Virus genome (UHGV): UHGV-0203104
Reading direction: 5' to 3' (one strand)
Length of the DNA: 38,800 bases
From: a virus
A model generated the notes under the pieces. The model was given only the letters and a program-made list of their open reading frames with translations. It searched no databases and was not told where the DNA came from. The position numbers and the translations under genes are program-made. Shown in pieces: positions 14,271-37,499 of the stretch (its first letter is position 1; each line of letters starts with the position of its first letter).

Positions 14271-14577
14271 CGTTATTACGCCGCCCGGTCAGTCCCACCA
14301 CCATTGAACCGTCAAAATTGCTGTTAATGGTGATGGAATCCAGCGTCAGCCGTGGCTCCCAGCGACTCAGCGCCACATACACTGCCGACATGACCTGCAG
14401 GCGTAATGCCGGATTTTGTGGCTGGTCTATCAGTGCCGACAGCAGGGAACCATATTCCCGACGGGCAATGCGGCTACCCTGCGGCGTCAGCAAAATGTCC
14501 CGCACCGACTGGCGCAGATGGTCAATATCAGTAATGGCTTTACCGCTGGTATTGTTCATCCCGCTATAAAGCGTCAT
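14218..14577 (-). CDS. W: Baseplate protein W homolog (gp25-like)
   Basis: 119 aa; P2 W is about 115 aa. Confidence 0.8.
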   Translation of the reverse strand: MTLYSGMNNTSGKAITDIDHLRQSVRDILLTPQGSRIARREYGSLLSALIDQPQNPALRLQVMSAVYVALSRWEPRLTLDSITINSNFDGSMVVGLTGRRNNGVPVSLSVSTGAENGSD

Positions 14578-15152
14578 ACCGGGCCTCCGGTTGTATCGCC
14601 GCCTTTCAGGACGCCAGTATGCTGATGCGCATCAACCACGATCCCGTTAGAACTCATCGCTCCGCCGCCCTGAGTAACGCCACCATTGACCACCACTTCG
14701 CTGTTAATACGCGTGCACTCAGCCTCCAGCACAAACTCACTGGTTTTCAGGGTGATGTTATCGGCAGCCTCAATGACCATGGATTTGATGCCCCTGACAT
14801 ACCAGCGCCCGGTGGCAGGTTCGTATTCAAACCAGCCACCGTCAGGATGTTCTGTCACGCAGGCGTCCGCCGACGTCGACGGTGGTGCGAACTGATTCGA
14901 ATAGATGGCGGGCAGCGCAAAAGCTGTTTCCAGATTACCGCCCATACTCAGCAGCACCACCTGCTCACCTTCCGATGGTCGCCACCATGTCCGGGCATTC
15001 CCGGCACGCAGCGTCAGCCAGCTGATCCAGTTGGTTTCAAGGTCGCCCGTTTTCACCCGGCAAAGCCAGTTTGTCCTGTCCACTTCGGTGACTACCCCAG
15101 TGCGGATCAGGTTGGTGATAAGGCGCATGATTTCTGTTAGATTTTTGTCCAT
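14574..15152 (-). CDS. V: Baseplate spike / central hub protein V homolog
   Basis: 192 aa; N-terminus aligns to P2 V (..MIRTGxV.E.D...RV.TG.....W..W...RAG..RTWW.PS.GEQV); ends in a Gly-rich tip. Confidence 0.85.
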   Translation of the reverse strand: MDKNLTEIMRLITNLIRTGVVTEVDRTNWLCRVKTGDLETNWISWLTLRAGNARTWWRPSEGEQVVLLSMGGNLETAFALPAIYSNQFAPPSTSADACVTEHPDGGWFEYEPATGRWYVRGIKSMVIEAADNITLKTSEFVLEAECTRINSEVVVNGGVTQGGGAMSSNGIVVDAHQHTGVLKGGDTTGGPV

Positions 15153-15230: not shown

Positions 15231-16250
15231 ATGGATTTTAAAGAATGGTTAAGCTCAAATAAAAACAGTCTTCCCGATGCAACCAGAGAAAATTTTGAAA
15301 AGCTATACTGGGAGTTCATAGACTTCAAAGCAAATGAATACATGTCGGAATTTAAAGAAAAAAAAGCAGAATTACTGGCCCAAAATGAACAAGAACATCA
15401 AAATTTCATAAAAAGACATATTAATATTTGGAGAGATGGTTTTGGATTATTAGAGTTGTTGTTAGAGTTATGTATTAATCAAGGTTCTAAATATAGTACA
15501 AGCTTACAACAAGATAAAGACACCGACACAAACAACCATTTGCAATTACTAATTAGATTACACGCAAAGGCATGTGCAATTTCTAACGAGATTTTATGTC
15601 TATTAAAAAATGGATTTCCTGACGCAGCCCATGCAAGATGGAGAGCACTGCATGAAACAAATGTAACACTACATTTCATCGACAAGCATGGTCCTAAATG
15701 CTCAGAAATATTTTTAGCACATGAAATTTATGATAGCTATTATCTAATGATGTCACATAAAAAGTATGAAAGCAGGCTTCAAGAGAAAGGGCCCAGTAAT
15801 GAAGAGGCCAGAGAATTAACAGACTTGTTCGATAAAGCCATTAAAACATATGGCAGAAGTTTTGATTCGCAATATGGTTGGGCCACACCATTTTTAACTG
15901 ATAAGAAACACAAAGCTAGCTTTAAATCAATTGAAAAAGAAGTTAAATTAGATCACATGCGCCCATATTTTAAATGGGCATGCCAAAACATCCATGTAAA
16001 TATAAAAACAATCACTAATAGCTTGTCACTACCCCATCACCTGAAGAACGTCATCAACATAGGTCCAAGTAATTTCGGATTAGTTGACCCTGCACATGCT
16101 ACAGCCCTTAGTCTTACTCAATCAACGTGCTGTCTACTGAAAAATGACTGCAACGAAGAGAATTTAATTTTCATGAATTTAATTAAACAACTATCTATAG
16201 AAATAGGGGACACATTCCTATCTATATCTAACTCAATTGAAAACAAATAA
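15231..16250 (+). CDS. AT-rich cargo gene inserted between V and S; hypothetical protein with a possible HEPN-like R-x4-H motif
   Basis: 339-aa ORF on the opposite strand to the flanking tail genes; visibly AT-rich against GC-rich neighbours; AGGG RBS 6 nt before ATG; stop codon 3 nt from the S stop codon. Contains HARWRALHE (R136-x4-H141). Confidence 0.7.
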   Translation: MDFKEWLSSNKNSLPDATRENFEKLYWEFIDFKANEYMSEFKEKKAELLAQNEQEHQNFIKRHINIWRDGFGLLELLLELCINQGSKYSTSLQQDKDTDTNNHLQLLIRLHAKACAISNEILCLLKNGFPDAAHARWRALHETNVTLHFIDKHGPKCSEIFLAHEIYDSYYLMMSHKKYESRLQEKGPSNEEARELTDLFDKAIKTYGRSFDSQYGWATPFLTDKKHKASFKSIEKEVKLDHMRPYFKWACQNIHVNIKTITNSLSLPHHLKNVINIGPSNFGLVDPAHATALSLTQSTCCLLKNDCNEENLIFMNLIKQLSIEIGDTFLSISNSIENK

Positions 16251-16253
16251 AAA

Positions 16254-16697
16254 TCAAGTTAGGTTTTTAATGAACATTCTTTCAATTAACTCAATAGATT
16301 GGACATTAAAACCTAATAACTGCCTTTTCGCATAGATGGTATAAATACCTTTTCGACTGACGCGATCGCGCAAGCCGTAATGGTGAACACGGGCAATGCG
16401 CTGCACCCTACCTTCAAACTGTACGCTGGCAGAATCGGCGCTGGCTGCAGTTTTCAGGTATTTTGTGGTGCGCAGCTTTGTAAACATCTGACGTTTGATG
16501 CGCCCCTTTTTGCTGCGTGCTGTTACCCTGCGCGGCTCATAACTGCTGCCATCTGGATTGCGCTGCATCCTGATGTTCTGCTGCTGTGTCCGGCGCAGTT
16601 CCTGCGCCAGCTGGCGCATCATGCGGCTTCTTGCGGCTGGCTCCAGATTCGCCAATAATGCACTCAGCCAGTCGTCCACCTTCTGCAATTCAGCCAC
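16254..16697 (-). CDS. S: Tail completion protein S homolog
   Basis: 147 aa; P2 S is about 150 aa; follows R. Confidence 0.8.
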   Translation of the reverse strand: MAELQKVDDWLSALLANLEPAARSRMMRQLAQELRRTQQQNIRMQRNPDGSSYEPRRVTARSKKGRIKRQMFTKLRTTKYLKTAASADSASVQFEGRVQRIARVHHYGLRDRVSRKGIYTIYAKRQLLGFNVQSIELIERMFIKNLT

Positions 16698-22200: not shown

Positions 22201-23967
22201 ATGAACACCACACTGACACCCGCAGATCTCGATCCCCGTCGGCAGGCCATGCTGCTGTACTTTCAGGGATACCGCGTAGCCCGCATTGCTGAAATGCTGG
22301 GCGAGAAAGTTGCAACCGTTCACAGCTGGAAAAAACGCGACAAGTGGGGTGACTATGGGCCTCTGGATCAGATGCAGCTCACCACCGCCGCACGCTACTG
22401 CCAGCTCATCATGAAGGAGCACAAAGAAGGGAAAGATTTCAAAGAGATTGACCTGCTGGCGCGCCAGTCTGAGCGCCACGCGCGGATCGGCAAGTTTAAC
22501 AATGGCGGCAACGAAGCCGACTTAAACCCTAACGTCGCCAACCGCAATAAAGGCCCACGCCGTCAGCCTGAAAAGAATGTTTTCACCGATGACCAGATTG
22601 AGAAGCTGGAAAAAATTTTCCATTCCTCCATGTTCAACTACCAGCGCCACTGGTGGGAAGCCGGAAAAACCAACCGCATCCGCAACCTGCTGAAGTCACG
22701 CCAGATCGGCGCGACCTTCTATTTTGCCCGTGAAGCCCTGATTGACGCCCTGCTTACCGGACGTAACCAGATTTTCCTTTCTGCCAGTAAGGCACAGGCC
22801 CACGTCTTCAAACAGTACATCATCGACTTTGCCAAAGAAGTGGAGGTGGAGCTGAAAGGCGATCCGATAGTGCTTCCCAACGGGGCCACACTGTATTTCC
22901 TCGGCACCAATGCCCGCACTGCCCAGAGTTATCACGGTAACCTGTATCTGGATGAATATTTCTGGATACCGAAATTCCAGGAGCTGCGCAAAGTGGCTTC
23001 CGGTATGGCTATTCACAAAAAATGGCGACAGACCTATTTTTCCACGCCATCCAGCCTGACACACAGTGCTTATCCGTTCTGGTCCGGTGCGCTGTTCAAC
23101 CGTGGGCGCAACAAAGCCGATAAGGTGGACATCGACCTGTCCCACAGCAATCTGGCCCCCGGCCTGCTGTGCGCAGACGGGCAATACCGCCAGATAGTCA
23201 CCGTGGAAGATGCAGTGCGCGGCGGATGTAACCTTTTCGACCTCGATCAGTTGCGCATGGAGTACAGCCCGGACGAATACCAGAACCTGCTGATGTGCGA
23301 GTTTGTGGACGATCTCGCGTCCGTGTTCCCGCTCAGCGAGCTGCAGGCGTGCATGGTGGACAGTTGGGAAGTCTGGACCGACTTTCATGCACTGGCCCTG
23401 CGCCCGTTTGGCTGGCGCGAAGTGTGGATCGGTTATGACCCGGCAAAAGGTACGCAAAACGGCGACAGCGCCGGGTGCGTGGTGGTGGCACCGCCAGCCG
23501 TGCCGGGCGGTAAGTTCCGCATTCTTGAGCGTCACCAGTGGCGCGGGATGGACTTCCGCGCCCAGGCTGACGCCATCAAAAAACTGACTGAACAGTACAA
23601 CGTGACATACATCGGTATCGACTCAACCGGCGTCGGTCACGGGGTTTACGAGAACGTGAAAGCGTTTTTTCCTGCCGTCCGGGAGTTTGTCTACAACCCC
23701 AACGTTAAAAACGCCCTGGTACTCAAGGCCTACGACATTATTAGCCACCGCCGCCTGGAGTTTGACGCCGGGCACACCGACATAGCGCAGTCCTTTATGG
23801 CAATCCGTCGCGCCACCACTGCCAGCGGCAACCGCCCGACCTATGAAGCCAGCCGCAGCGAAGAAGCCAGCCACGCCGATCTGGCCTGGGCAACAATGCA
23901 CGCACTGTTTAACGAACCGCTGCAGGGCGAATCCGCCAATAACAGCAATATTGTGGAGATTTTTTGA
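22201..23967 (+). CDS. P: Terminase large (ATPase) subunit P homolog
   Basis: 588 aa (P2 P about 590 aa); hydrophobic-stretch D-E motif LYLDEY; divergent from O and followed by the portal gene. Confidence 0.85.
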   Translation: MNTTLTPADLDPRRQAMLLYFQGYRVARIAEMLGEKVATVHSWKKRDKWGDYGPLDQMQLTTAARYCQLIMKEHKEGKDFKEIDLLARQSERHARIGKFNNGGNEADLNPNVANRNKGPRRQPEKNVFTDDQIEKLEKIFHSSMFNYQRHWWEAGKTNRIRNLLKSRQIGATFYFAREALIDALLTGRNQIFLSASKAQAHVFKQYIIDFAKEVEVELKGDPIVLPNGATLYFLGTNARTAQSYHGNLYLDEYFWIPKFQELRKVASGMAIHKKWRQTYFSTPSSLTHSAYPFWSGALFNRGRNKADKVDIDLSHSNLAPGLLCADGQYRQIVTVEDAVRGGCNLFDLDQLRMEYSPDEYQNLLMCEFVDDLASVFPLSELQACMVDSWEVWTDFHALALRPFGWREVWIGYDPAKGTQNGDSAGCVVVAPPAVPGGKFRILERHQWRGMDFRAQADAIKKLTEQYNVTYIGIDSTGVGHGVYENVKAFFPAVREFVYNPNVKNALVLKAYDIISHRRLEFDAGHTDIAQSFMAIRRATTASGNRPTYEASRSEEASHADLAWATMHALFNEPLQGESANNSNIVEIF

Positions 23968-24674
23968 TGCCCCCAATCCCAACTAACCTCATGACTATCG
24001 CGGGACTTCCGGTGGATAGCTCTTTCTTTGCTTACCAGTATGAGTGGAACACTGGCCCAAAGAGTAGAAACCGTGTACTCACAAAAATGCGCCAGGCAGG
24101 CGCGGATTTCTTTTTTTCCTATGAAGCCCTGAACGATGCACTGCATACCGGGCGTAACCAGATTTTCCTCTGCTGCAGCACAGCATCTGCGCAGGCAATC
24201 AAAGCCTATGTATCAGCATTCTTAAGCCAGGCCGCAGCTTATACGCACACTGGAAAAATAAAATCAGGCAAAAGTCATCTGGAGCTTCCGAATGGTGCAG
24301 TAATTTATTTTACCGACCTCCGCAGTCTCACCTCCGCACTCAGTGGAAATGTTTACGTGTCAGAGTATGCCTGGAGTGAATCACCGAGAAATATGATTGC
24401 CATCGCTAAAGGGATTTCTATGCACGCACACCACCACGCCACCTACTACACCACTCCCAGCCCTAACCCAGAGGCACGGCAGGAATATAAAAAGCTATGC
24501 AGAAACAACAGCGTAACCAGCATGGTGTTCACCGCAGATGACGCAGCAGCATCTGGAGCAATGTTGTTTACTGATAACTGGCTGAACGATATGAAAAAAG
24601 AATTATCAGAAGAGGACTGGAAAATGCTGTTTATGTGCGAATGGCCTCTCGCTAGCAAGGAACTGGCAGAATGA
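23964..24674 (+). CDS. Terminase large-subunit ATPase-domain paralog with substituted Walker-B-like Asp; extra gene between P and Q
   Basis: 236 aa; start overlaps the P stop (ATGA) and stop overlaps the Q start. Aligns by eye to the central ATPase region of P (FNYQRHWW/FAYQYEW, DALLTGRNQIFLSASKAQA/DALHTGRNQIFLCCSTASA, NGATLYF/NGAVIYF, LLMCEF/LFMCEW), but GNLYLDEY of P is GNVYVSEY here. Visibly lower GC than P and Q. Confidence 0.65.
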   Translation: MMPPIPTNLMTIAGLPVDSSFFAYQYEWNTGPKSRNRVLTKMRQAGADFFFSYEALNDALHTGRNQIFLCCSTASAQAIKAYVSAFLSQAAAYTHTGKIKSGKSHLELPNGAVIYFTDLRSLTSALSGNVYVSEYAWSESPRNMIAIAKGISMHAHHHATYYTTPSPNPEARQEYKKLCRNNSVTSMVFTADDAAASGAMLFTDNWLNDMKKELSEEDWKMLFMCEWPLASKELAE

Positions 24675-25702
24675 GCAAACGTAAAAACACCAAGCAGGTA
24701 ACAGTTGGTCACGACACAAAACCAAGCAACGGCCCAACGGCTGAGGCTTTCAGCTTTGGTGATCCCATCCCCGTGCTGGACCGCCGCGAACTGCTGGACT
24801 ATGTGGAATGCGTACAGATGGATCGCTGGTATGAGCCGCCCGTCAGCTTTAATGGACTGGCGCGCACCTTCCGCGCCGCCGTGCATCACAGTTCCCCGAT
24901 TGCAGTAAAGTGCAACATTCTGACCAGTACCTATATCCCTCATCCGCTGCTCAGCCAGCAGGCTTTTTCGCGTTTTGTGCAGGACTATCTGGTATTTGGT
25001 AACGCCTACTTGGAGAAACGCACGAACCGCTTTGGTGAAGTTATCGCCCTTGAGCCAGCTTTGGCAAAATACACCCGACGCGGATTAGACCTGGATACCT
25101 ACTGGTTTGTGCAAGACGGTATGACAGCCCAGCCGTATCAGTTCACGAAAGGCAGCATTTTTCATCTGATGGAACCGGACATCAACCAGGAGATCTACGG
25201 CCTGCCAGGTTATCTCTCTGCCATCCCGTCAGCCCTGCTCAACGAGTCCGCCACACTGTTCCGCCGTAAGTATTACATCAACGGCAGCCATGCAGGTTTC
25301 ATCATGTACATGACCGATGCCGCACAGAACCAAGAAGATGTGAACAACCTCCGCAACGCAATGAAAAGCGCCAAAGGGCCAGGCAACTTCCGCAACCTGT
25401 TTATGTACTCTCCTAACGGCAAAAAGGACGGGCTTCAGATTATCCCGTTGTCAGAAGTCGCGGCGAAGGATGAGTTTCTGAATATCAAGAACGTGAGCCG
25501 GGACGACATGATGGCGGCACACCGTGTGCCGCCGCAAATGATGGGGATAATGCCTAATAATGTTGGGGGGTTTGGGGATGTGGAGAAGGCTAGTAAGGTT
25601 TTTGTGATAAATGAATTAATTCCTTTGCAAAAACGATTTATGGAAATAAACGCATGGCTCGGGGAGAAACTTATAGAATTTTCTCCATATGAGCTTAACT
25701 AA
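24671..25702 (+). CDS. Q: Portal protein Q homolog
   Basis: 343 aa (P2 Q about 344 aa); contains the conserved P2-family portal segment PLSEVAAKDEFLNIKNVSRDDMMAAHRVPPQMMGIMP. Confidence 0.9.
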   Translation: MSKRKNTKQVTVGHDTKPSNGPTAEAFSFGDPIPVLDRRELLDYVECVQMDRWYEPPVSFNGLARTFRAAVHHSSPIAVKCNILTSTYIPHPLLSQQAFSRFVQDYLVFGNAYLEKRTNRFGEVIALEPALAKYTRRGLDLDTYWFVQDGMTAQPYQFTKGSIFHLMEPDINQEIYGLPGYLSAIPSALLNESATLFRRKYYINGSHAGFIMYMTDAAQNQEDVNNLRNAMKSAKGPGNFRNLFMYSPNGKKDGLQIIPLSEVAAKDEFLNIKNVSRDDMMAAHRVPPQMMGIMPNNVGGFGDVEKASKVFVINELIPLQKRFMEINAWLGEKLIEFSPYELN

Positions 25703-25708
25703 AATATT

Positions 25709-25740
25709 AGTTGCCAGTACCGTATTGTTGCTACTGGCAA
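25709..25740. terminator. Hairpin between the convergent Q and 25752 genes (possible bidirectional terminator)
   Basis: Stem TTGCCAGTA ... TACTGGCAA (9 bp) with a 12-nt loop, flanked by A/T-rich sequence. Confidence 0.4.
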
Positions 25741-25751
25741 TTGCAATAAAA

Positions 25752-28088
25752 TTACAAATATGTATTGCTATGTAGAGATGTGTTTATTCCATCTTCTATC
25801 TCAATTTTTGACGAAGCATACTCATCATTCGCACTATCATCAATATCAAACTCATCTTGTAGATGAAGTGACTCATTTAACGGTCTATAAAACTCACCCA
25901 TCATCATTTTGTAATGGGCAGTATGCTCACTACACTCAAATATCTTCTGAAAAACAATTAAATATTTTTGCACAGACTCCGTATCTAAATTCATATAAAG
26001 ATCATCACCTGCAAAATGAGAACCATCATTAATCCATGACACTAAAGATTTAAATATGATTTTTTCATCACCATAAAAATGACATTCAAGCTTCCTAATA
26101 TCCATCCCACCTAATATCTTAAAGTAATTCTCCAAAATCCTTCGCATTGTATTTTGTATAGTATTATTATTAATATCTGTTCTTCTCAATTCGCACCAGA
26201 GCAAATCATAAGACGTTTTTATTGGGTTTGATTCGCACTTTTCAAGATATGAGACCTTCCCTTTTTTCCTTACAATCCAAAAAGTCTCCTCTTTCATTGC
26301 TTGATTACCGGATCTTTTAGTATTAAAAGTCAACTCTTTATGAAAATAAATATTATGTGTAAGGAATATAATTTGCTTAATATTTCCTTCATCCTTACGA
26401 ACATCCTCCATTAAATCTTTAATCAACGAACTTACAATAAACAGAATATCACTATCTAAACTTGAAATTGGATCATCAAATACTACAACACGATCATCTA
26501 AAACACCTGATGCATTATCACTCCCTCTAACAAGGCTATAAAAATACAAAAAAGTGATAAATGTCTTTTCTCCCTCGCTAAGGGTTGTACGAGCATTATC
26601 TCCACTATCTCTCACTATCATATAATGCTTTTTATCTTCGGAGGGTTTTAAGTAAAAATTTTTGAAGCCATAAGAATCCAGAATCTTGTTAATTTTTGTA
26701 ATAGTTGGAAGAGTACTGGTTTTATTAGACTCAATTGCCTCAATAGCCGAAGCATTTAACATTAACTTCTTTTTGTCTTCCTCTAACCCAGATTTAAGCC
26801 CTTGTAACTTCCTATTAAATTTATCAGATTCGCTACGGTAAGAAGTTATTTCAGACTTTAACTCCACCTTTACGATATATGCCCATATCTGATTAGAAAG
26901 ATTACTAGCCTCTACCTTTCTATTACTGTGTATTTTGTTATTATTATCTATCAATAGATTTGAATCATTCAAAAAAGAAATAAAATCATCAACAACTTCA
27001 CTTAAGTCACTAAAATGAACTGATTCACTTAAAAAATTGCGTTTATTTTTTGCCAATTCAAAATTCTTGTTTAATTCAGATAATACTATCTTAGCCTTAT
27101 CCTCAAACACTTCATAGTTTATGAATGGAGATTTAATCGCCCTTATATCATCTATCGCCTGCAAGATATTATTAAGTTGATGTTCATATTGTAAAACCAA
27201 TGCATCGATTTCTCTTTTTTTTAACTCATATGTTTTATCAAAATATGATGATAGATTATCAAATATATTATCATTTACATCCTGCTGGCAGAATGGGCAC
27301 TTGGGATTAGATTTACTGAAATATGTTAAACCTTCCTTAACCCAATCACTGTTATTGAGCATTGTAATTAAGTCTGAAACACTAACGTCTTTTTTCCCTA
27401 GAATACGCTCACTCCAAATCTCCCTACTCAAAATATCATCTATCCCATTGAAGGATGGAATTGTAATTGATACATGTGATGTCAATTCAGTAGAAAAAAC
27501 AATTTTTGCTTTCTCAATTAGCTCTGCTATTGAGCAAACTTCTGATGTGTTATTTTCATACTCAGCCAACACTCTAGCTTTAAATTTTTCACTACTATTC
27601 CTTAATCCCTCAAAAGCCTTTGAGAACACATTATCATGTTTTACTTTTTGCTTCCAACATGAATCTTTAAAAGATTTTTCATGGTCTTCGATTTGTTTAA
27701 CAACGCCTAATATATTATCACCACCATCTATTAGCTTTTCCTTTGCTATAATAGATTCTATTAGCTTATTTTTTTCTTCTTCAAGAGATATTAATTTCTC
27801 TTCATCCTCCTTAAGATCGCTACCAAGGGTAAATACACCTTTAATTTTATCTTGACTAAAATTTCTTTCAACAAAATCTTTATTATATACGTAGCTTATT
27901 AAAGATATATTATTTTTCCATTTAATCGGACATGTTGGATATTGTTCAGGGTCATTAATAATTTTACTTATAGTTGTTTTACCTGCACCATTAGCTCCAT
28001 ATAAATAGTTAAATTTAGAAAGCCCATGTAAAAGCTGAGTAGGGCCATTATATGAGCCTACTTTGTCAATAACTACCTCTTCAATCAT
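25752..28088 (-). CDS. RloC/PrrC-like (AAA_13-type) ATPase with zinc hook and putative C-terminal anticodon-nuclease-like region
   Basis: 778 aa, strongly AT-rich. Walker A GANGAGKTT (res 31-39), CPFC zinc-hook-like motif (264-267), ABC-signature-like LSEGEK (503-508), Walker B VVVFDDP (534-540), LTHN (576-579), and C-terminal R-x3-E plus downstream His (RRILE 649-653, H670/H691). Sits between Q and the cos-like site. Confidence 0.6.
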   Translation of the reverse strand: MIEEVVIDKVGSYNGPTQLLHGLSKFNYLYGANGAGKTTISKIINDPEQYPTCPIKWKNNISLISYVYNKDFVERNFSQDKIKGVFTLGSDLKEDEEKLISLEEEKNKLIESIIAKEKLIDGGDNILGVVKQIEDHEKSFKDSCWKQKVKHDNVFSKAFEGLRNSSEKFKARVLAEYENNTSEVCSIAELIEKAKIVFSTELTSHVSITIPSFNGIDDILSREIWSERILGKKDVSVSDLITMLNNSDWVKEGLTYFSKSNPKCPFCQQDVNDNIFDNLSSYFDKTYELKKREIDALVLQYEHQLNNILQAIDDIRAIKSPFINYEVFEDKAKIVLSELNKNFELAKNKRNFLSESVHFSDLSEVVDDFISFLNDSNLLIDNNNKIHSNRKVEASNLSNQIWAYIVKVELKSEITSYRSESDKFNRKLQGLKSGLEEDKKKLMLNASAIEAIESNKTSTLPTITKINKILDSYGFKNFYLKPSEDKKHYMIVRDSGDNARTTLSEGEKTFITFLYFYSLVRGSDNASGVLDDRVVVFDDPISSLDSDILFIVSSLIKDLMEDVRKDEGNIKQIIFLTHNIYFHKELTFNTKRSGNQAMKEETFWIVRKKGKVSYLEKCESNPIKTSYDLLWCELRRTDINNNTIQNTMRRILENYFKILGGMDIRKLECHFYGDEKIIFKSLVSWINDGSHFAGDDLYMNLDTESVQKYLIVFQKIFECSEHTAHYKMMMGEFYRPLNESLHLQDEFDIDDSANDEYASSKIEIEDGINTSLHSNTYL

Positions 28089-28220
28089 CCTCTAATCCTC
28101 AAAAAACAGATTAATCCTATCAAATCAATGATAATAGAAGACATTACTTACCTAATTACAAGGTGATCATTTATACAGCTGTGAATAAATCAGGCTAATC
28201 ATCTATTTGTCATAACGCGC

Positions 28221-28240
28221 GCTCGTATCCCCGCCACGCC
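28221..28240 (-). other. cos-like site (G-rich cohesive-end core)
   Basis: Minus strand reads GGCGTGGCGGGGATACGAGC; the first 13 nt match my recollection of the 186/P2 cos core. Exact ends not verified. Confidence 0.35.
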
Positions 28241-28285
28241 TGCCCGCTTTATGTAGTGGTTTTCATGCACCTGCATGATCTACGC

Positions 28286-28317
28286 AAAAGCCCGCCAGTT
28301 CTGGCGGGCCTTAGCAA
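28286..28317 (-). terminator. Rho-independent terminator downstream of the dinI-like gene
   Basis: GCCCGCCAG-ttct-GGCGGGC hairpin followed on the minus strand by TTTTG. Confidence 0.45.
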
Positions 28318-28444: not shown

Positions 28445-28678
28445 TTAATGCAGCCAGCTGTCGTCTTCCCACACCTTCTGCATAATTTTCATCACTTGTT
28501 TTCTTTCTTCGTCCAGTTGCAGTCCGGTTAGTTCCACACCGTTAGAGCTACCTTTGCGAATGCGAATTACCGTTTTGGGATACAGGGGGCGCAGATTGCG
28601 GTAAAGCTCGGATTCAAGGGCGTCCAGGGTAGACTGGCTAATCTTCTGCTCTTTATCGATCATTATTTCAATGCGCAT
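28445..28678 (-). CDS. dinI: DinI-like protein
   Basis: MRIEIMIDK...LDALESELYRNLRPLYP...VWEDDSWLH parallels E. coli DinI (MRIEVTIAK...WESADDWFVSE); start trimmed to the MRIE Met of ORF 28445..28750. Confidence 0.75.
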   Translation of the reverse strand: MRIEIMIDKEQKISQSTLDALESELYRNLRPLYPKTVIRIRKGSSNGVELTGLQLDEERKQVMKIMQKVWEDDSWLH

Positions 28679-28688
28679 AAAAGTCACC

Positions 28689-28877
28689 TCAGCTGATGAC
28701 ATCCATTGAGCGGTTGTATTCGTGGGTTCTGATTTTTGCCATGAGTTCATCAGTCAATTCAGAAACCCACTGCAGAGCCAGCCCCTTCTCTTCATCACTA
28801 CACTCACTAGCCGCTACAAGCTTAAGAAAAAAATCAATGCGCTGGAGCTTCAAAGACTCCAAAAAATAGTCCTGCAT
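28689..28877 (-). CDS. Small SOS-controlled protein upstream of the dinI-like gene (possible Tum-type antirepressor)
   Basis: 62 aa from the internal Met of ORF 28689..28979; a LexA box sits about 45 bp upstream. Function inferred from position only. Confidence 0.45.
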   Translation of the reverse strand: MQDYFLESLKLQRIDFFLKLVAASECSDEEKGLALQWVSELTDELMAKIRTHEYNRSMDVIS

Positions 28878-29030: not shown

Positions 29031-31445
29031 TTAATACAGGTTCCGCCACTGATCATCTTCCTGCAAACGCTGGTTCCGATAGAAGATACGCAGGCCTGCT
29101 CCTGACGGAATACTGCCTCCGCGAAGGAGTAAATCGACCTCTTTCTCGCTGCCATCAAATCCTCTGGACTTCAGCTCATACACGAGCTGCAGTCGCTGAT
29201 GGTCTGTAATTCGCTGTTTGTAGTCTTTACGCCGTTTCGGTTTCACCAGGCGTAACCTTGCTGCCAGTTCCCGGCGCTCTTTTTTGCTCATACTGTGCAG
29301 GTAATCGTGCAGCTCCTTGTCATCCATGCTGGTAATGTCCGTTCTGGGGTTCCCATCAGCTGATTTATCTTTCTCCTGTTGGTTCAAATTTTCAGCAAGG
29401 GGACAGTTATTGCCACGAGTCCAAGGGGCGCAAGCGCCCTGGTCGGCTGCCGCCTCCTGAACGTCAACGGCCTTACGAACCATTTTCCACTTCACTGCAT
29501 GAGTGCAGATCTTGCCCTCTGCAATGGGTGACCAGATGCCATAAATACGAATACCGTGATCGCCATAGGCGGTTGGCTCTTCGTTGATTTCATAAGCGGT
29601 TCTGATGAGGTGATATTTGCGGGGAACCAGTACGCCGCCCTGCTTCATGATGTAGGTGGCAAAACAACCAGCATCAGCAGCAGCCAGGATGGCATCAAGG
29701 CGCGGGTTATCCAGTACCGGCGCACCTGCTTTTTTGTCACCCTGTTGCCTTGCCGCCTGACCAGCCAGCAATCGCAGTTCACGGTAAGCCTGACGCCCCG
29801 GAATGCCAAAGAAGCGGAATTGCTGAACACGATGCAGAGACGCCCAGGCATTAACGTATTCAGCGTTATCACGCAGGGATTTACCCGTTTCCTTACTGAT
29901 CTCGCCAGCCAAACCACGCCCGTCAATATTCTTACTGATATATTTCGCAATGTAGCTTGTCGGCGTTCCTTTGCGCGGGTTTATCAGCTCAGACTTAAAG
30001 CGTGGCCCCGTGTTATTGCCCAGCTCCTCGCGGTCTTCACGGATGGCAAACTTACGCAACAATGCAGTAATGGCGCGGCGGTCTTTTTTGCGCATGAAAC
30101 ACAACAGGTGCCAGTGAACTGTGCCGTCATGATGCGGCTCAGCCACCCGCACGCCATACCAGCGCAACCCGGCTTTGTGCATAGCCTTACGAAATGCAGC
30201 AAACATGCCGACCAGATAATCGCTGCTTTGTCTTACTGTCGCGTTGGTCCAGGTCGGGTTTGGCCTGCCGTTATTTAGCGTGGAATGGAAACGTGACGGA
30301 CAGGTGATGGTGTAGAAAACGGCGCAGTCACCACGCATTTCCGCGATAAGCTCCAGGCCTTTAACACAGGCCATCATCTCATTGCGGCGATGCGCCGGGT
30401 TGCTGCTGCTGGCGTTTACCACATCCTCCATGTTCAGCGTGTCGCCGTCTTCGTTCACCAGTTCATGAGAACGGAAAAACTCCAGCGACTTACGGCGCTG
30501 CTCACGTTTATGCATCACGGCTTCATAGCTGACATAGGGAGATGCTTTTTTGCTGACCAGGCAGACAGCACGCAACTGTTCTTCCCGCCATTCGCAACGC
30601 ATCTTCCATAATTTCCGATACCACCAGTCGGCGCACAGCATACGCGCCAGCGAACCCGGAATGAGTTCATAGGGCACAGGTTTGCGGCGGTTTCTTTTCC
30701 GGCGGAGTTGCTCAAACGCAGGCGGTATGACATCCAGTCGCAGGGTTTCTGCAGCCACCTTTTCCCATGTCTTGCGGATTTCTTCTGGCTTAACATCATC
30801 GGAGGCGTACAAATCACCACAAGCGGCATCAAGACACATGCTCATATGCGCAGCGACAAGGGTAGACAGGCGTTTCACCTGATCCTGACTCATTTCAGGC
30901 AGGATCAGCAGACCGTCCAGCCCTTCATGGCTTGCCATAAAACGAAAAGATGCAGATAGCTGGCTGTCGCGTACATGCTCCAGTCGTTCCAGACATGGCT
31001 TAATCGTCTCACGCAAATAGCGGGAATAAGCCTTTGGCCTGCCCAGGCTGCTGAAATATTCAATACGTTGCATCAGCGGCTTGCTGATATGGGAAGGCTG
31101 GGCGTTGACGTCAGCCAGAATGACCATGTCTGGATTAAAACGCTGCTGCTCATGCACCATCTTTGCCCGGCTAATGAGCTTATCCTGCTCCATTTCGCGT
31201 TGGACAGGATCACGGGATTCATTAAAGAAATAACACTCCCAGACCTGATCACTCAGTGCCTCGCGGCGCAGTCGTTCCTGTTCGTTATCGGTAGCGTACA
31301 GAGTGATCAGGTTTGAAAGCGCAGAAACCGGCGCAACTTCCGCCGGGTCCAGATAAGGGTTAATGGCCTTTTTCGGGCTGTTCCATGAGAATGCTGCGGC
31401 GACCTCGTTAAAGCCGCTGCAGTTGTTCATATCAGCATGGCTCAT
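29031..31445 (-). CDS. A: Rolling-circle replication initiator (A homolog)
   Basis: 804 aa; HUH motif (TVHWHLLCF) and tyrosine motif ([12 protein letters not shown]); size and position as P2/186 gene A. Confidence 0.85.
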
Positions 31446-35422: not shown

Positions 35423-36463
35423 ATGACCATCAGAAAACAGCCAAACGGAAAATGGTTGTGTGAGTGCTATCCCAATGGACGCAATGGTAAGCGCGTGCGT
35501 AAGCAATTTGCTACTAAAGGCGAAGCCATTGCGTTTGAAAGCTTCACAATGGAAGAAGTGAACAAAAAACCATGGCTAGGGGAAAAGGAAGATCGGCGAC
35601 ATCTATCAGAATTAATTGAGCTGTGGTATTCCCTGTATGGTCAAACACTCGCAGACCCCAAGCGCCTCATGGCGAAACTTAGAATTATCTGTAATGGTCT
35701 AGGCGATCCCATCGCCTCAGAACTGACAGCTGGTGAGTTTACGAAATACCGCGAAGCACGGTTAAAAGGTGAAGTACGAAATGAAGATGGCACGCTTATG
35801 TCGCCCGTTAAGCCCCGCACGGTAAATCTTGAACAGCGCAACCTATCATCTGTTTTTGGTACACTGAAAAAGCTGGGCCACTGGTCAGCCCCCAACCCGC
35901 TTGCTGGGCTGCCAACATTTAAAATTGCTGAGGGTGAATTGGCGTTCCTGACCTCGGAAGAAATTAAACGTCTGCTGGATGCCTGTGCTGATTCTCAAAG
36001 CCCCAGTCTGCTGATGATTGCAAAAATATGCTTGGCCACCGGCGCACGCTGGAGCGAAGCCGAAAACCTGCAGAGTCATCAGGTATCAAAATACCGTATC
36101 ACTTATACCAAGACTAAAGGAAAGAAAAACCGAACAGTGCCTATTTCAAAGGATTTATATGAAGAACTGCCTAAGAATAGGGGAAAATTATTTACACCTT
36201 GTAGGAAAGCTTTTGAACGTGCGGTAAAACGAGCTGGCATCGAGCTACCAGAAGGGCAATGCACACACGTATTACGACATACATTTGCAAGTCACTTTAT
36301 GATGAATGGCGGAAACATACTGGTGCTGCGCGATATTCTGGGCCATGTCGATATAAAAATGACAATGATTTACGCCCACTTTGCTCCCGACCATCTGGAA
36401 GATGCTGTAACCAAAAATCCTCTTGCTAACCTTGGATGGAGAAGATTAGAAAGTGTTTGTTAA
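35423..36463 (+). CDS. int: Tyrosine integrase (P2/186 family)
   Basis: 346 aa; catalytic region with R...H..R and LGHVDIKMTMIYAH. Confidence 0.9.
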   Translation: MTIRKQPNGKWLCECYPNGRNGKRVRKQFATKGEAIAFESFTMEEVNKKPWLGEKEDRRHLSELIELWYSLYGQTLADPKRLMAKLRIICNGLGDPIASELTAGEFTKYREARLKGEVRNEDGTLMSPVKPRTVNLEQRNLSSVFGTLKKLGHWSAPNPLAGLPTFKIAEGELAFLTSEEIKRLLDACADSQSPSLLMIAKICLATGARWSEAENLQSHQVSKYRITYTKTKGKKNRTVPISKDLYEELPKNRGKLFTPCRKAFERAVKRAGIELPEGQCTHVLRHTFASHFMMNGGNILVLRDILGHVDIKMTMIYAHFAPDHLEDAVTKNPLANLGWRRLESVC

Positions 36464-37499
36464 TAACTATATCCAACAATACCCATGGATATCGTACTTA
36501 CTTATCATAATATATTTTATATATATATGCCTTGAATTATATCTATGCGTATCAAAAAAAGGCTTTAACATGGATGAAAGGCCATTAACAAGTCAATACT
36601 TATTTAAACAATCACTTAGGATTCCTGTATTTTCAGCGATATACTTTGGTATATTTTCCTGGCTTGGACATTCCCCTCAATTTGATAGTGAGGGCTTTAA
36701 TAATTTCATTGCAATTAGCAAGCTTCCTATCGCCTTACTTTCTTTGTCCATACCATTTGTTGCTGTCGTAGCAAACATACACCGCACAGTTCAAACAAAC
36801 CGACAAATTGAGGAAACCAAGCAAAAGAATCTATCTGATAGCTACTATAGCCATCTAAAGTTCGTTACTGATTATTTCACCAATTTACCTAACAAAACCA
36901 TTAAACGCGAACGTCATTATGGTACTAAAGAGATAAGTTATAAAATTAACTACCCAATACATCTATATAGATATATTTTCATAAATAGCTCACCAGAGAA
37001 GGGACGGCCTAAAAATACAGATAAAGAATACATACGTGAAGTGAATAATCACTGGGTTGATATACTAAAAAACCTGGAGAAGATACATTCATCTAATCGT
37101 GGCTCTCAGTGTGACGAAGTTTTAATCCGTCAAATGCAATCTCTTCATTCAATAGAAAAACACTTATCCGAACTTAATCGAATGCTTTGCCTAACTCCAA
37201 TGGAGTTAAATGAACATGGAACTTTATACTTTGATGGATATAAAATGATTACTAACTTCATGTCCAGCATTGAACTTGGCGATACAATTGAAACCTACTT
37301 CAAATTTACCATTGATATTCTTGATATTACCGATAATTTCCTTTCATTCAAGGATGATGGCTCGTCTGGGCAAATCATTATACTTGCAAGATTACTGAAA
37401 GATAATAATCCAGCTATCTTTGATGAAATTATAACAGACAAAGGGAAGGCTCAACCTTCGTTGACCTACAATGGCGACAAATTGGCGGCAGAGGATTAA
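36453..37499 (+). CDS. AT-rich cargo protein with hydrophobic N-terminal segments (hypothetical; possible exclusion/abortive-infection factor)
   Basis: 348-aa ORF (alternative start at 36570, MDERPL..., AGG-containing RBS); strongly AT-rich; apparent hydrophobic helices (IPVFSAIYFGIFSWLG, LPIALLSLSIPFVAVVANI) before a roughly 220-aa soluble domain. Lies between int and attR. Confidence 0.6.
   Translation: MFVNNYIQQYPWISYLLIIIYFIYICLELYLCVSKKGFNMDERPLTSQYLFKQSLRIPVFSAIYFGIFSWLGHSPQFDSEGFNNFIAISKLPIALLSLSIPFVAVVANIHRTVQTNRQIEETKQKNLSDSYYSHLKFVTDYFTNLPNKTIKRERHYGTKEISYKINYPIHLYRYIFINSSPEKGRPKNTDKEYIREVNNHWVDILKNLEKIHSSNRGSQCDEVLIRQMQSLHSIEKHLSELNRMLCLTPMELNEHGTLYFDGYKMITNFMSSIELGDTIETYFKFTIDILDITDNFLSFKDDGSSGQIIILARLLKDNNPAIFDEIITDKGKAQPSLTYNGDKLAAED

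Follow-up and report, generated by a model that had tools for sequence, protein, structure and literature searches.

An RloC-family gene with a putative anticodon nuclease domain in the A-Q defence hotspot of a P2-like prophage

RloC proteins were defined by Davidov & Kaufmann (PMC2610378) by four sequence features: PrrC-type ATP-binding cassette (ABC) motifs, a coiled-coil insert carrying a CxxC motif, a C-proximal R-x3-E-x36-52-H motif in which the His is often preceded by Ser, and a length of 658-897 amino acids (aa). The two characterised members, GkaRloC and AbaRloC, come from distant phyla and both cleave tRNA anticodon loops (PMC2610378, PMC3874168). The nuclease of GkaRloC is silent until its ATPase hydrolyses ATP with linear DNA, and mutations in the hook deregulate it (PMC3458546); agents that induce DNA breaks activate AbaRloC in mutants of hsdR, hsdM and hsdS just as they do in the wild type (PMC3874168). 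Here we analysed a stretch of 38,800 nucleotides (nt) of the UHGV virus genome UHGV-0203104 (the window), which matches with 100% identity a P2-like prophage on the E. coli MINF_1D chromosome and which carries an RloC-family gene at 25752..28088 on the minus strand. We consider it likely that its product, with an ABC head, a CxxC coiled coil and a C-terminal RNase of divergent HEPN type with an Arg-Glu-His triad, is a single-gene tRNase cassette triggered by DNA ends and lodged in the A-Q hotspot.

Genes of this kind at this location are already in the literature. The interval between genes A and Q is a defence hotspot of P2 and a proven defence locus (Rousset et al. 2022, PMC9122126); Table S5B of that study counts 420 occurrences of its system #5, an 'AAA_13' protein annotated 'RloC-like'. 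In 2013 Anantharaman et al. (PMC3710099) drew attention to ABC-HEPN proteins encoded in prophages, with APECO1_4465 as the type example. Table S1 of the original RloC study includes an E. coli orthologue of 738 aa from strain APEC O1, YP_852004, with the neighbours given as 'Phage replication initiation, Capsid' (PMC2610378). We found its gene flanked by gpA and the portal gene in a P2-like prophage (25932-28148 of our APEC O1 locus, L013).

The window gene starts at an ATG, 7 nt downstream of the Shine-Dalgarno sequence GAGGA (28096-28100), and encodes 778 aa plus a stop codon. An earlier note, made from the letters of the window, had described exactly such an AT-rich reading frame at this place, and the list of open reading frames (ORFs), the Pfam AAA_13 match and the PADLOC PDC-S06 match all point to the same gene. 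Its GC content is 0.30-0.33 (about 0.31 overall) compared with 0.50-0.58 in the flanking phage genes, and it is present in only 26 of 5,426 complete E. coli genomes. The product, WP_040072399.1, is annotated no further than 'AAA family ATPase'.

Profile searches revealed full-length agreement with Pfam AAA_13 (PF13166; E = 5.8e-164; 548 bits, the gathering cutoff being 36; positions 2-713 of the 713 in the profile). This was among the checks proposed in the earlier note, and it places the observation far beyond chance. The match to PADLOC model PDLC04890 extends over positions 1-725 of 732 (E = 1.5e-266); the model belongs to PDC-S06, a computational candidate single-gene defence family for which we found no published test. 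Lower-scoring PADLOC matches were to LmuB (E = 9e-14), PrrC (E = 2.5e-11, aa 459-703 of the protein), MADS3 and AriA. PHROGs returned an unnamed family only, NCBIfam nothing meaningful, and a search of PDB chains with the whole protein sequence no relative. Relatives at 42-45% identity bear the JGI label 'wobble nucleotide-excising tRNase', which is annotation and not evidence.

All four RloC features are found in the window protein. Its 778 aa lie within the published range, the ABC motifs are present, the predicted CxxC coiled-coil insert sits between Walker A and the signature motif, and R649-x3-E653-x37-S690-H691 follows the R-x3-E-x36-52-H rule with a Ser before the His. A BLASTP alignment with APEC O1 YP_852004 pairs aa 4-733 with aa 2-731 at 27% identity (E = 1e-45) and brings into register Walker A, CPFCQ, LSEGEKT, DDPISSL, LTHN, MR[RN]ILE[NY]YF and IN[DR]GSH, MRNILEYYF being the APEC O1 counterpart of the R649-x3-E653 segment. 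Compared with system #5 of Rousset et al. over the N-terminal 399 residues of the latter, the protein shows 25% identity. In all three cases, the window protein, the APEC O1 protein (WP_000423308, probably APECO1_4465) and system #5, one AAA_13 gene on its own occupies the A-Q hotspot of an E. coli prophage of the P2 type. The APEC O1 protein likewise falls into PDC-S06, although its best sub-model is PDLC04886 rather than PDLC04890.

The order of motifs (Walker A, CxxC coiled coil, signature, Walker B, switch His, R-x3-E-x(36-52)-S-H) is that of GkaRloC and AbaRloC (PMC2610378, PMC3458546, PMC3874168), and K44, C291, D572, R692, E696 and H737 of GkaRloC are colinear with K37, C267, D538, R649, E653 and H691 of the window protein. 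As with other RloCs, it is a single gene of the expected size class, and such genes are usually not linked to restriction-modification (R-M) genes. The differences, judged by motifs and residues, are a length of 778 aa compared with 804 and 826, and a CPFCQ hook in place of C-A/H-F-C-G; the window protein is furthermore prophage-borne and ends in an acidic tail described below. In the text of the 2008 supplement obtained by optical character recognition, the characterised pair has the C-A/H-F-C-G hook, and one other orthologue has CPFCQ...YFDDTF as here. Searching with the GkaRloC alignment rows of that text, an approximate query, gave no match, and A. baylyi and G. kaustophilus are both absent from the best 80 relative loci. 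By its sequence the window protein is therefore best described as an RloC-family member of a subfamily apart from the biochemically characterised RloCs. A Streptococcus phage Javan105 protein labelled 'translation-disabling ACNase RloC' (L014 2923-5184) was rejected as a reference sequence, since D replaces E in its R-x3-E and no His aligns with that of GSH; the protein may be inactive, or misaligned near an insertion.

We aligned 43 homologues at 41-66% identity, the set to which invariance refers throughout. K37, C264, C267, S504, D538, D539, H578, R649, E653, S690 and H691 are invariant, and the E653-to-H691 spacing of 37 is the same in all 43. Every motif named in the earlier note was present at the residue it gave. 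On the minus strand, Walker A (the P-loop GANGAGKT, aa 31-38, containing K37) lies at 27975..27998. The ABC signature LSEGEK (aa 503-508, with L503, S504, E505, G506 and E507 invariant) occupies 26565..26582, Walker B VVVFDDP (aa 534-540, with D538, D539 and P540 invariant) 26469..26489, and the switch or H-loop LTHN (aa 576-579, with T577, H578 and N579 invariant) 26352..26363. In full, Walker B and the D-loop read VVVFDDPISSLD (aa 534-545).

The AlphaFold model (AF2) has a mean predicted local distance difference test score (pLDDT) of 78, with a confident ABC head. It supports the zinc-hook coiled coil that the earlier note had proposed, predicting a Rad50-like head, helical arms and CxxC at the apex. 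The ascending long helix of the insert (aa 93-151, 27636..27812, minus) is modelled at a pLDDT of about 86-92, and the descending helices (aa 285-318, 325-351, 363-409 and 411-454; 26727..27236, minus) at about 87-94. The CPFC motif between them, a putative zinc hook (aa 264-267, 27288..27299, minus; C264, P265 and C267 invariant), forms the apex and is modelled at low confidence (pLDDT 42-59). A beta-hairpin and a helical C-terminal domain span aa 601-733. The all-helical part, a putative HEPN-type anticodon nuclease (aa 620-733, 25890..26231, minus; helices 626-733), carries the candidate catalytic triad: R649 and E653 in RRILE (26130..26144, minus) and the His of S690-H691 (26016..26021, minus), within a GSH at 689-691 and 37 residues past E653. 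The R-x3-E and conserved His that the note had picked out in the C-terminus thus belong to a triad without variation in the alignment. Beyond a conserved YKMMMG begins an acidic tail (aa 734-778, 25755..25889, minus; 12 D/E and 3 K/R) that is predicted to be disordered, with a pLDDT below 50; in the model as a whole the disorder takes in aa 743-778.

Foldseek searches of the model against the PDB returned Rad50, cohesin and condensin heads and Lamassu LmuB on top, in agreement with the published Rad50-like description of the RloC N-region. The window protein shares with Rad50/SbcC and LmuB an ATPase head with an antiparallel coiled coil (Foldseek probability 1.0), and with Rad50 a CxxC hook as well. 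Unlike them, it has no Mre11/SbcD or LmuA partner, its coiled coil is much shorter and a putative RNase-type domain is fused in cis; membership of Rad50/SbcC was rejected. With PrrC of the E. coli prr locus it shares an ABC-type NTPase followed by a C-terminal, here putative, RNase domain with an Arg-Glu-His triad and, by analogy, a translation-disabling abortive defence. However, PrrC has about 400 aa, lacks the coiled-coil/hook insert and always resides in a silencing type Ic hsd locus, whereas the window protein has 778 aa with an insert of about 400 aa, no hsd locus and a C-terminal domain that does not match the PrrC profile. PrrC membership was rejected on these grounds, so that of the PrrC/RloC-like identity suggested in the earlier note the RloC part stood and the PrrC part did not. 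P2 Old (an ABC ATPase with TOPRIM) is cargo of the same hotspot and has been reported as an abortive tRNase responding to DNA structures (2026 preprint, 10.64898/2026.07.10.737580). It differs from the window protein in its effector domain, an unrelated TOPRIM, in lacking a zinc-hook coiled coil and in its position on the A side of cos. With no Toprim family among the Pfam matches and a helical C-terminal domain, the window protein was not assigned to the OLD family.

The genomic setting identifies the gene as an inserted cassette. On one side lie the terminase ATPase gene P (22201-23967) and the portal gene Q (24671-25702, plus), and on the other the DinI-family gene (28445-28750) and the gpA gene (29031-31445). 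Similarity to P2/186/Fels-2-type phages ends within the last 20-70 nt of Q and returns at 28216, indicating a cassette of about 2.5 kb in which the RloC-family gene comes with a 127-bp leader of its own. The left junction, with a 49-nt spacer, covers 25633..25751, matches of the backbone to P2-like Q genes stopping at 25632-25682. On the other side, the cargo-specific upstream region (28089..28215, minus) comprises the 5' untranslated region and a presumed promoter of its own; a scan of this leader for a consensus sigma-70 promoter found none. Low expression of rloC genes was predicted by the RloC authors (PMC2610378). Next to the leader is a cos-like 19-mer, GGCGTGGCGGGGATACGAG (28222..28240, minus), which marks the hotspot boundary. 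An inverted repeat at 28284..28315, a G+C-rich hairpin that precedes a run of T on the minus strand, is a probable terminator of the early (A-dinI) operon, and probably insulates the cargo gene from it. The 356-bp gap before the dinI-like operon contains no ORF of more than 45 aa and no Rfam match.

The position between Q and a cos-like site, in the old/tin hotspot and on the other side of cos, agrees with what the note had proposed. The site is not the canonical P2 cos, whose 19-mer is absent from the window at up to 3 mismatches, and is of the 186/Fels-2-like type. What we take to be the P2 cos 19-mer occurs exactly in APEC O1, and the cos-like 19-mer of the window agrees with it at 14 of 19 positions. 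An identical 19-mer is found at the same place in an Enterobacter P2-like prophage (L004 5856-5874), which encodes a 62%-identical RloC-like protein in the same slot, on the Q side of cos. The APEC O1 RloC gene is instead on the A side of the canonical P2 cos (L013 28464-28482), as is old in P2, and it is co-oriented with Q, whereas the window gene is convergent with it. The Q-side position seen in the window and in Enterobacter appears to be a new detail. With RloC-like cargo on either side among P2-like prophages, both flanks of cos accept insertions.

Relatives of the protein occur in at least 466 species-representative genomes from many bacterial phyla and some methanogens. Those at 51% identity sit in the psu-int hotspot of P4-like satellites (E. 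coli, Serratia), which extends the mobility of the gene across the P2 and P4 hotspots; a Pseudomonas relative has CBASS genes a few kb away, and a Burkholderia relative is a solitary insertion. We analysed the flanks of 75 of the best 80 relative loci and found no partner family universal among them. Together with the gap before dinI, this bears out the note's view of single-gene cargo without a partner. What the analysis establishes is the architecture, the conserved residues, RloC membership as judged by sequence, the movement of the gene between the P2 and P4 hotspots, and its lack of a partner. In 12 of the 75 loci a DUF2130 gene, encoding a protein of about 430 aa with an N-terminal CxxC (L017 2651-3940 and 11 other loci), lies directly upstream, together with a SNF2 helicase and a DNA methylase. 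The combination of DUF2130, SNF2 helicase, methylase and RloC-like genes may be a recurrent multi-gene defence module.

Several findings, given here with the alternatives that they favour, weigh against a self-contained, DNA-end-triggered tRNase. In 11 of the 75 loci the gene directly follows hsdS within hsdM-hsdS-X-hsdR type I R-M operons, and the RloC authors themselves raised teaming in trans, remarking that APEC O1 'encodes type I EcoK like' (PMC2610378). The main rival is accordingly the same enzyme under PrrC-like control, silenced in trans by a host type I R-M complex (EcoKI-like) and released by phage anti-restriction proteins. We regard this as unlikely. The window copy is not linked to R-M genes, its neighbours being the portal gene, cos and dinI, and the P2- and P4-borne copies are mobile without R-M genes; activation of AbaRloC is independent of hsd (PMC3874168), and the zinc hook, which is the internal switch of GkaRloC, is strictly conserved. 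Occasional R-M linkage among mostly solitary genes is also the pattern described in the RloC literature (PMC2610378).

The nuclease domain is the weakest link of the RloC assignment. Taken alone (aa 588-745 or 627-733), it gave nothing against the PADLOC PrrC profile at E values up to 10. This indicates that the PrrC match of the whole protein is carried by the ABC lobe and that the likeness of the nuclease domain to PrrC comes from the motif rule only, which fits the remark that the triad correspondence needed manual adjustment (PMC2610378). A structure search with the model of the domain, which is helical, did not recover a nuclease fold. A profile of aa 588-745 retrieved 1,251 representative clusters, in which nearly all of the best matches are C-terminal in proteins of about 740 aa; apparent PrrC-sized carriers (about 400 aa) were rejected as fragments belonging to that family. 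An RNase is argued for by the invariant R, E and S-H, by their rule-conforming spacing and, through analogy, by published mutagenesis of the equivalent GkaRloC residues (PMC2610378).

These results leave some room for an ABC-ATPase-controlled RNase with another substrate (mRNA, rRNA or another tRNA site), for which the label 'anticodon nuclease' would be wrong in this subfamily. Identity to the closest protein that has been called RloC is no more than about 27%, RloC does not share the elements by which PrrC recognises its substrate (PMC2610378), and the RNA targets of HEPN nucleases are diverse (PMC3710099). Nevertheless, triad and spacing conform exactly to the RloC rule, and the characterised RloCs of distant phyla both cut anticodon loops, so that we hold a different substrate to be improbable, somewhat more so than control by R-M. 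A non-nucleolytic SMC/Rad50-like DNA binder serving the prophage in maintenance, handling of packaging ends near cos or exclusion, with a structural or protein-binding C-terminal domain, could be read from the Rad50, SMC and LmuB structural matches, the location immediately beside cos and the unrecovered fold, but is hardly credible when Arg, Glu and Ser-His stay unchanged at their positions from phylum to phylum, most relatives lie on chromosomes in R-M or defence settings that involve no phage, and the scarcity of the gene in E. coli indicates that P2-like phages need none.

We therefore favour the tRNase cassette, and from the characterised RloCs we infer nuclease activity, a tRNA substrate, a DNA-end trigger and a defence phenotype for the window protein. 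Dimers of the protein would be held silent by the hook and the ATPase module until the ATPase head meets linear DNA or DNA breaks, for instance from a superinfecting phage or from breakdown of host DNA. Once activated, the protein would cleave the anticodon loops of tRNAs, perhaps with excision of the wobble nucleotide, and the resulting arrest of translation would amount to abortive infection. The cassette would be served by its own upstream region, with cos and the terminator separating it from the early operon.

The acidic tail contains an S-A-N-D-[DE] motif (SAND at aa 752-755, nt 25824-25835) whose conservation is confined to the clade carried by P2-like prophages and P4-like satellites (relatives P0002-P0020). 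It is absent from the chromosomal clade at 42-45% identity and from the APEC O1 protein. One idea, which we offer as a long shot, is that the tail provides the P2/P4-borne clade with its own level of regulation, acting as a docking site or an autoinhibitory DNA mimic, and so spares the prophage at its own cos cleavage.

Other parts of the window also deserve mention. Between P and Q, overlapping both slightly, a 236-aa ORF (23964-24674, plus) carries a Terminase_6N domain (E = 4e-17) and the RefSeq label 'terminase large subunit domain-containing protein'. In the P2-like prophages of Enterobacter and APEC O1, Q comes straight after P and this ORF is absent; it has the look of an incomplete copy of the N-terminal region of P. 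Another AT-rich island (GC about 0.36; 15231-16250, plus) lies among tail and baseplate genes, between gpV (14574-15152) and a tail-completion gene (16254-16697), at what is presumably the P2 orf30 position, and probably represents a further slot for cargo. Its product is a DUF5677 protein of 339 aa (E = 6e-28) for which PADLOC gave no match. Finally, a 348-aa AT-rich ORF (GC about 0.34; 36453-37499, plus) overlaps at its start with the end of the integrase gene (35423-36463). Hydrophobic segments are predicted at its N-terminus, a PADLOC '2TM effector' model matches it weakly (E = 2e-4) and Pfam assigns it to no family; it may be prophage-edge cargo or flanking host DNA.

RloC has its place in catalogues of defence systems, yet the literature consulted contains no phage-challenge test of one; for such a test, according to the discoverers of the family, one would need a natural host together with cognate phages encoding tRNA repair (PMC3458546). 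An E. coli-native RloC-type gene in a P2-like prophage supplies such a host system, for which T4 with its Pnk/Rnl1 repair, T4 repair mutants and the standard panels of coliphages are apt. It opens the questions of how wobble excision fares against tRNA repair, what the trigger is in vivo and how the carrier escapes self-killing on induction. A suicide nuclease activated by DNA ends and encoded beside cos raises in particular the question of how the prophage avoids triggering it by its own packaging and linear genomes. If the proposed role of the SAND tail is true, it would give a DNA-end-sensing nuclease near cos a means of self/non-self discrimination between the carrier phage and a superinfecting phage. 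Otherwise, the RloC-family gene adds a documented Q-side cargo variant to the repertoire of the P2/P4 hotspots.

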